Shown here in pieces: positions 8,732-27,034 of a stretch of DNA of 64,000 nt. The stretch is from positions 27,280,001-27,344,000 of the forward strand of contig OX597834.1 in assembly GCA_951406725.2 (NCBI GenBank), written 5' to 3'. The number at the start of each line of letters is the position of its first letter. Positions within the stretch are counted from its first letter, which is position 1. This DNA is from Octopus vulgaris. Taxonomy: Eukaryota. The notes under the pieces were generated by a model that had not been told where the DNA came from, did not search any database, and saw nothing but the letters and a program-made list of their open reading frames with translations. The position numbers and the translations under genes were made by a program.

Positions 8732-9150
8732 TATTTCTTTACTACCCACAAGGGGCTAAACACAGAGGGGACAAACAAGGACAGACAAACGGATTAAGTC
8801 GATTATATCGATTCCATTGCGTAACTGGTACTTACTTTATCGACTCCGAAAGGATGAAAGGCAAAGTCGACGTCGGCGGAATTTGAACTCAGAACGTAGC
8901 GGCAGACGAAATACCTTTTTTTTTTCTTTTTACTACCCACAAGGGGCTAAACACAGGGGACAAACAAGGACAGACAAACGGATTAAGTGGATTATATCGA
9001 TTCCAGTGCGTAACTGGTACTTAATTTATCGACCTCGAAAGGATGAAAGGCAAAGTCGACCTCGGCGGAATTTGAACTCACAACGTAACGGCAGACGAAA
9101 TACGGCTACACATTTCGCCCGGCGTGCTAACGTTTCTGCCAGCTCGCCAC
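8732..9150 (-). mobile_element. SINE family B head-to-tail dimer
   Basis: Full unit plus a second unit starting at internal GGTATTTCG. Central GGTCGACTTTGCCTTTCATCCTTTCG...GTCGATAAA...AGTACCAG resembles, from memory, the Nin/Deu-type SINE domain. Confidence 0.9.
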
Positions 9151-9372
9151 TTTGTAATTTTAATACATCAAGAATTTAAATTGAACGCTATTTAACATAT
9201 CTGCGTGTCTATGTCGTAAAACGCATGTCTCTGGCCACTCTCAGTTCTCTTAGGTCACTTTTGTTTTACATATACAAACATACATACATATATACATACA
9301 TATACAAACAAACATACATATATACATACATATACAAACACACATACATATATACATACATACGTGAACACA

Positions 9373-9593
9373 GATTACCGCTATGGGCTCCGTGTGAGCA
9401 ATCATCTGAAAGTTTTTTTGTGCATTTTGATGTTGACATAAGTTCCTTGCTTTTCCTGATGAGAGAGCGCCATAATGTACTCCTTATTCCTTCGCAATTA
9501 GGAATATGGAGCCTTCGAAACATATGTCGAAAATAAAGGAATTTTGTTAATTCGTCGTTCAGCTCCATTCTTTCATATATTTATATTTTCAAA
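9373..9593 (+). mobile_element. 221-bp non-coding hammerhead element with 13-bp TSD
   Basis: Flanked by ATACGTGAACACA at 9360-9372 and 9594-9606; contains the HHR at 9443-9541. Confidence 0.78.
9443..9541 (+). ncRNA. Type I hammerhead ribozyme, canonical core
   Basis: Stem I TTTTC/GAAAA extended by TTCCTT/AAGGAA; CTGATGA 9456-9462; long stem II closed by G-C (GAGAGCGCCATA/TATGGAGCCTTC); GAAAC-ATAT-GTC. Predicted cleavage after C9528. Confidence 0.85.
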
Positions 9594-9784
9594 ATACGTG
9601 AACACATATATACATTCATATATTTACACATATAAATACATATATATATATGCATACAAAATAACCAATAAATAATAGATAAACCATGAATTTATGTTTT
9701 ATGGTTCTTGATGTACCTGCATTTGTCTGTTACTGGCAATTCTGAGAACTCTTAGCTCATTTTTGTTTAAATTATGCATGTTTC

Positions 9785-10490
<706 letters not shown>

Positions 10491-26689: not shown

Positions 26690-27034
26690 TGACTTAGTGT
26701 TTGCTTCTTCCATGGATATAAGTAAATATTTCATTTATTTCTTACCGTATTTATCGCTGACGAAGAGAAAATTCTTATGAATTAACTCTGAAATTGGGAC
26801 CGATACGATAATAACTGAATTTTTTAGAAATTTCTCTCGGCTTACTTCGAGACGCGTGCTTATAGTGATAAATTATATGGTTATTGACGATTTGTCTATT
26901 TTCGGCATATTTGGCATTAGAATTTTCGTCTTTTGCCCTTGTTTATAAGTTGTTTATAAATTTAACCTTTAAAGGTATTTTTTAATATGCTGGCCATTGA
27001 TAGAATTTTTTCGAAAAATTTTATCCTATATTAG
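26690..27034 (+). mobile_element. Family F non-coding repeat with HHR-like motif at 26752-26805
   Basis: Homologous to both arms of 6053-6514. TATCG-CTGACGA-AGAG...CTCT-GAAATTGGGAC-CGATA. Confidence 0.72.

Follow-up and report, generated by a model that had tools for sequence, protein, structure and literature searches.

Is the 221-bp segment that carries a hammerhead ribozyme between two copies of a 13-bp repeat a mobile element in its own right, or a fragment of something larger? Scans of the window (the whole 64-kb stretch of Octopus vulgaris DNA analysed), genome-wide searches for further copies, protein comparison and RNA folding point to the second answer. The segment is almost certainly the pseudo-LTR end of a Penelope-like retrotransposon, ~3.5 kb long and protein-coding, with Hydra-clade motifs. 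Its insertion as a short cDNA, from internal priming, was probably the work of the reverse transcriptase (RT) and GIY-YIG-type nuclease that the element itself encodes.

The insertion and its family

A script covering both strands of the 64-kb window found the 13-mer at 9360-9372 exactly repeated at 9594-9606, with no third copy on either strand, which bears out the perfect direct repeat that a first-pass annotation had placed around the element. The 221 bp between the two copies are numbered q1-q221 here (9373-9593). Homology to other family copies spans about 9368-9596, so that both junctions overlap the repeat by a few bases, and we regard the repeat as a likely target-site duplication of the 221-bp insertion. 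The features of the insertion are the following.

9266-9359, no strand: degenerate (ACAT)/(AT) microsatellite where the element inserted, read from the sequence
9360-9372, + strand: left 13-bp direct repeat, likely target-site duplication; absent from the flanks of other copies
9373-9593, + strand: q1-q221, almost certainly a solo pseudo-LTR, assigned to a Hydra-type Penelope-like retrotransposon
9374-9389, + strand: hotspot of family 5′ ends (q2-q17), predicted transcription start
9574-9593, + strand: AT-rich "short" 3′ end (q202-q221), likely first reverse-transcription start site
9594-9606, + strand: right 13-bp direct repeat

The same annotation had noted that the element lacks a tRNA-like head and is unrelated to a unit at 1387-2297; a tRNA gene search indeed found none, and the two sequences share only chance matches of 8-23 nt (best E 0.08). 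The 1387-2297 unit bears an 18-nt terminal direct repeat and, at 2040-2080, a minimal hammerhead-like core (CUGAUGA, short stem II, GAAA) as read from its letters. Two adjoining copies of a common short repeat, putatively of an octopus SINE type, lie at 8800-9150. None of the 72 non-repetitive ORFs scanned in the window (72/72) matched a host gene family, a scan that short exons would escape.

Far from being isolated, the insertion belongs to a large and young family. In a genome search that gave 1,955 candidates, all 40 that were scored showed 95-100% identity, and a 28-mer from the 3′ half of the hammerhead, common to several subfamilies, has 1,620 exact matches in the 2.8-Gb genome as against 0 for its reversed control. 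The family is also represented in contigs of four sequencing runs from four organisms, all of which cover the element deeply (within 9140-9600) and none of which covers its flank. Private substitutions average 1.06% from the majority among 79 fetched close copies; with a published calibration in which a distance of 0.09 corresponds to 25 million years (PMC13282606, whose main text mentions neither ribozymes nor hammerheads), this would make the family copies, as a rough estimate, about 3 million years old. The earlier description of a recent, non-autonomous ribozyme retroelement survives in part: a young retro-insertion is supported, a separate non-autonomous element is not, the 221 bp being almost certainly the pseudo-LTR end of a coding Penelope-like element.

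That distinction rests on sequence continuity with the coding element, and here the link to Penelope ORFs proposed for checking was found, the same sequence joining an RT and GIY-YIG-type ORF in other copies. Among the 29 other top loci, homology continues upstream into a 3′ UTR and ORF in 20 and downstream past q221 into a 5′ UTR in 22. Longer copies carry ~520 nt of 3′ UTR upstream of q1, preceded by an ORF end of GIY-YIG type, and downstream a 5′ UTR that leads to the next ORF ATG at q417, ~415 nt away. One locus (L037) runs unbroken from 3′ UTR through hammerhead and 5′ UTR to ORF start; another (L031), interrupted by one frameshift and one stop, comprises a 5′ UTR, RT (YRDD), a C-terminal nuclease and a 3′ UTR followed by the hammerhead and the tail; and in the sisters L115 and L116 an open 899-aa frame has a hammerhead at either side, a pLTR-ORF-pLTR layout. 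In a protein search in which 124 of 6,740 candidates were scored, the five closest matches (90-100% identity) had open frames of only 321-555 aa, while many matches at 74-85% identity had open frames of 888-908 aa. Since none of the five closest matches has an intact ORF, the enzyme may derive from a sister subfamily. A different Hydra-type ORF, frameshifted and with a cysteine linker, lies on the minus strand of L035 (2304-3772), between family copies inside a 1.77-kb inverted duplication. A literature search, with Repbase/Dfam entries and subscription papers outside its reach, found no paper on this Penelope-like family.

Clade motifs of the coding element

The nearest Atlas clusters of the ORF protein carry HTH_animal, GIY-YIG and RVT_1, and 481 homologs pass E 1e-10 among 7,997 scored candidates; Pfam scans of the ORF gave no RT or GIY-YIG family match, and a PDB sequence search returned nothing relevant. 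The ORF proteins have DKT, lack the CCHH cysteine pair and carry CxxC and CxH near the C-terminal end, where these motifs flank the conserved E and N of the C-terminal nuclease as in the Hydra clade. A Neptune-clade reading was dropped because the CCHH pair and the CX2-5CxxC finger are absent and DKT is present. Judged by its motifs, the parent element is likely a Penelope-like retrotransposon of the Hydra group.

The resemblance to the Hydra clade, Hydra-1_Obim included (PMC8557442), extends to the single ORF with RT and C-terminal GIY-YIG-type domain, DKT without CCHH, CxxC/CxH near the end, a hammerhead in the pLTR, (TA)n targets, an inverted arm and a one-sided tail. The octopus group departs from it in several respects. 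Its RW motif is RWL, against RWK in the clade description and RWK or RWR in 8 aligned homologs. The CxCX5C linker, kept in 8/8 aligned homologs, is missing in 3/3 sister proteins of this genome, for which reason we file the element as Hydra-like, and a long Asn-rich insert occupies its place; Asn-rich inserts are known in rotifer Penelope (PMC3846280). Three sister loci (L113:2462-5173, L114:2647-5343 and L117:2242-4929) hold open frames of 896-904 aa without the linker, and this group inserts into (TA)n. The ORF of ~900 aa and unit of ~3.5 kb contrast with Hydra elements, which are usually <3 kb, and the tail of ~155 nt with the 30-40 nt described. Compared by eye only, Hydra-1_Obim has a 7-bp stem II and keeps the linker, whereas the element here has a 54-nt stem II domain.

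Insertion ends and the proposed route

The two ends of the 221 bp are each recurrent in the family. At the 5′ side, 31 copies extend as far as q17, and 15 of them end inside q2-q17, where neighbouring rates predict 1.85 (P about 1e-9; two samples pooled, 57 distinct copies after removal of three duplicates), although BLAST ends may shift by a few bases in diverged subfamilies. Copies that extend further have TATAAA starting 28 nt upstream of q2 and TGACGTCA starting 41 nt upstream of it, and q2 itself lies within TCATT; the TATA spacing varies among sister subfamilies. We infer from these letters that the TATA/Inr-type elements may act as a pseudo-LTR promoter with an RNA start near q2. A comparable arrangement is described for rotifer Penelope, in which a 218-bp pLTR bears TATA and Inr, and in which solo pLTRs occur, as do duplications of 8-10 bp (PMC3846280). 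The pile-up of 5′ ends at q2-q17, 28 nt past a TATA-like box, suggests that the 221 bp are likely a cDNA that runs from an internal priming site to the RNA 5′ end. A small GCTC/GAGC hairpin beside the hotspot (window 9387-9399), kept in most sister subfamilies, could stop reverse transcription.

At the 3′ side, two samples of 30 copies each, chosen by exact pattern in chromosome order, show two fixed ends ~155 nt apart: copies end at q202-q229 in 22/30 and 19/30, the others (8 and 11) at a long end near q370, and (TA)n then follows. The two ends are also coupled within single insertions. An inverted arm is present in 20/30 matches of the second sample, corresponding to 14 insertions, all of which (14/14) pair one short with one long end; in a second count, 28 of 32 two-arm insertions clearly did so, one had two long ends and three were unclear, both counts having been made by hand. 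A simple repeat stands within about 25 bp of an end in 74 of 84 family insertion units, as expected of (TA)n insertion, and a complex end repeat in 3 of the 84 only, the clearest being that of the window copy. The pseudo-LTRs occur as direct partial tandems or inverted, with a tail at one end, the arrangement of Penelope-like elements; an inverted arm with a one-sided tail is the published Penelope pattern (PMC8557442) and has been traced in PAc, a Poseidon element of Anolis, to two internal priming sites (PMC11167929).

In 5/5 copies folded, a stem-loop is predicted in the 5′ UTR, and the long end falls within its AC-rich loop, as for the two internal start sites of PAc. This conserved structure (L037 5540-5660, minus strand, and the same region in L041, L045, L115 and L118) closes just before the ATG and contains an inner hairpin besides the AC-rich loop. 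A 66-nt 5′ UTR intron, guessed from GT..AG, was dropped because one sister subfamily lacks the AG and the GT falls within a conserved stem.

We consider the following route probable. The RNA would start near q2, driven by a TATA/Inr-type promoter; the element's enzyme would nick AT-rich DNA and prime inside the RNA at the short site; and the cDNA, copied back to the RNA 5′ end, would leave a solo 221-bp copy without a promoter. The template would be uncut or re-joined RNA, as the copies read through the cut site: GTC is read through in 576 copies, while 25 differ three bases upstream, and in only 6 of these 25 are the last two bases absent, a count that leaves out copies with a chance G at that position. 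The hammerhead would then travel as pseudo-LTR cargo, and it would cleave only when two copies dimerise via the palindrome or when a protein assists.

A solo repeat inside an intact duplication could also arise, as solo LTRs do, if an originally full-length insertion had recombined between its two pseudo-LTRs. Recombination or deletion has been proposed for solo pLTRs (PMC3846280), and repeats of the octopus unit about 3.5 kb apart do occur. We nevertheless consider this origin unlikely, as full-length copies are rare (4/30 extend past q-828) and the commonest form of the family, short copies whose 5′ ends are ragged and whose inverted arms start at q2-q17, makes recombination unnecessary.

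The view nearest to the first-pass annotation, a stand-alone 221-nt non-LTR retrozyme spreading via circular RNA processed by its hammerhead, seems to us highly improbable. The length falls within the 150-450 bp range of retrozyme monomers (PMC7229834), q2-q221 does recur as a discrete unit, and both solo monomers and an ancestry of retrozymes in Penelope-like elements have been described (10.64898/2026.07.22.740005). However, tandem arrays did not appear: across 148 loci the closest same-strand hammerhead pair is 814 bp apart and short head-to-tail tandems are absent, so retrozyme-type arrays are absent from the sample. Moreover, short and long copies (95-98% identity) cannot be told apart by any diagnostic sequence, the ends coincide with the fixed 3′ site of the parent and not with a permuted circle, and copies almost never start at the hammerhead cut site.

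The hammerhead and its fold

The hammerhead core spans 9456-9528 in type I order, and all core nucleotides are present, as had been reported: CUGAUGA at 9456-9462, the closing pair G9463-C9516, GAA at 9517-9519 and C17 at 9528, which also agrees with cleavage predicted after 9528. Its parts are these.

9439-9455, + strand: 5′ strand of the bipartite stem I, pairing with 9529-9542 in the constrained fold; read from the sequence
9456-9462, + strand: core CUGAUGA (CUGA[U/A]GA in 14/14 subfamily rows)
9463-9516, + strand: stem II domain, with a 12-bp outer helix (9463-9474/9505-9516, two mismatches) and an inner hairpin
9517-9528, + strand: GAA, palindromic stem III (9520-9527) and cleavage nucleotide C17 (9528)
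9529-9542, + strand: 3′ strand of stem I, from sequence reading and the constrained fold

A type I descriptor finds this hammerhead among three matches in the window, the others being at 26757-26805 (+) and 6233-6185 (-), against a mean of 0.07 matches per shuffle in 30 dinucleotide shuffles, or 0 with a stricter stem rule. No Rfam model matched the window at the gathering score. Over 9200-9800, hammerhead families were missing even with E up to 10 allowed, for which the 54-nt stem II domain is the probable reason.

Conservation across the lineage speaks for the motif. The whole core is intact in 64 of the 79 fetched family copies. In 14 natural rows, which represent seven subfamily types, 88.2% of the structure pairs and 7 pairs carry changes at both positions; 0/500 shuffles score as high and slid controls reach 28-41%, although the 14 rows are related, the structure was drawn from the same rows and one changed pair is the window copy's own. 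In the outer helix of stem II the paired fraction is 90%, and 6 of its pairs differ at both positions between subfamilies. The 8-nt palindrome of stem III (9520-9527) is conserved in 14/14 rows, in two of them, from one sister subfamily, through a double change. An RNAalifold consensus recovered distal stem II and a competing pairing rather than the full hammerhead, and per-region conservation rates were set aside because copies had been chosen by similarity to the 3′ half. We conclude that the hammerhead motif is under selection in the lineage.

The window copy itself is another matter. The region 9435-9550 folds with z = -4.5, and its minimum-energy fold is the alternative inner hairpin that had been noticed within the long stem II, not the hammerhead. 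In a monomer model that omits tertiary contacts, the gap between the hammerhead-compatible fold and the minimum is 9.5 kcal/mol for the window copy, against 6.1 for a majority-type copy and 1.4-1.6 for two sister subfamilies. Stem III requires a partner: no monomer hairpin is predicted for the palindrome, whereas its 8-bp intermolecular duplex is worth -7.0 kcal/mol. A palindrome that cannot fold on itself and can form a duplex fits the dimer dependence of hammerheads in pseudo-LTRs of Penelope-like elements, which are also weak in vitro (PMC4209133). The window copy, lacking promoter and partner, is thus a poor candidate for cleavage and is predicted by the fold model to be a weak cutter, more prone to misfolding than its siblings. 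It had been put forward as the best candidate for self-cleavage here, a rank that is not supported: the hammerhead at 6233-6185 has stems I/II/III of 6/4/4 bp against 5/3/3 and, by this stem count, is the better candidate for monomer cleavage in the window. That copy and the one at 26757-26805 (+), also with 6/4/4-bp stems, belong to a second repeat family (1,855 candidates, 40 scored at 90-100%) with some inverted pairs.

Only three substitutions (9465, 9470 and 9509) are private to the window copy; all three fall in stem II and keep its pairing, and 9470/9509 together turn a G-C into a C-G pair, a kind of compensatory flip that 1 of 79 copies shows. Three random substitutions would give such a pattern with a chance of 5.6e-4, a figure to be read in the light of its having been noticed after the fact; with at least 1,600 copies in the genome, about one of this kind is to be expected. 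Genome-wide, the 5′ variant occurs only once (1 match). A subfamily with the flipped pair was not found, the 12-mer having 41 matches against 45 in the control and L080, the second copy with the 3′ variant, having the 3′ change only. The window letters at 9465 and 9470 are absent from the contigs of three runs, and the fourth shows a trace of ~0.1% non-majority depth that is not assignable. Possible origins of the three changes are an uncommon source copy, repair templated by a hairpin, misassembly and selection.

Under the last of these, selection would have acted to keep stem II in the window copy or in the RNA from which it directly derives, and the copy would be a working ribozyme at the locus or a trace of evolution at the RNA level. 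The kept pairing and the unique 5′ variant would suit it, but given the number of copies, the 9509 change that strengthens the competing fold, the want of a host exon in the ORFs scanned and the room for an assembly or repair artefact, we think it very unlikely. A broader version, in which the copy is a DNA snapshot of Penelope RNA under RNA-level hammerhead selection (compensatory flip plus editing-type A-to-G) from a (TA)n-targeting lineage without the linker that primes at two sites 155 nt apart, also strikes us as improbable, if slightly less so. Internal priming on a pseudo-LTR transcript of the coding element remains our preferred account.

Known systems and what the family adds

The literature already describes pseudo-LTR hammerheads of Penelope elements as well as solo copies, (TA)n targets and inverted arms, and with >1,600 related copies of a known kind the 221-bp insertion is an ordinary member. 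The ribozyme shares with the published pseudo-LTR hammerheads (PMC4209133) the type I order, a long stem II, G10.1-C11.1 and a small palindromic stem III, as well as their occurrence mostly as single motifs or as opposite-strand pairs 100-700 bp apart; it differs from them in a stem II that is longer and branched into an inner hairpin, in having no extra base between 9 and 10.1 and in the 8-nt length of its palindrome. With metazoan non-LTR retrozymes (PMC7229834; 10.64898/2026.07.22.740005) it has in common a short non-coding unit, one type I hammerhead and a derivation from Penelope-like elements, but not their head-to-tail tandems, and its sequence is continuous with a coding element. The closest functional parallel is PAc (PMC11167929), which also has two fixed 3′ ends, AT-rich targets, an AC-rich stem-loop at an end and an uncut RNA template with no ends at the cut site, and whose insertion did not need cleavage. 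Unlike in PAc, both ends and the hammerhead lie here upstream of the ORF start, and the ends are ~155 nt apart.

By combining end mapping with protein motifs, our analysis shows a lineage that lacks the CxCX5C zinc-finger linker and still targets (TA)n, which questions the role proposed for this linker in (TA)n targeting. With two fixed 3′ ends and none at the cut site, the family offers genome-scale support for internal priming on uncut RNA and, through its predicted start site and the intact ORFs of its sisters, the latter suited to an in vitro assay, serves as a clean test case.
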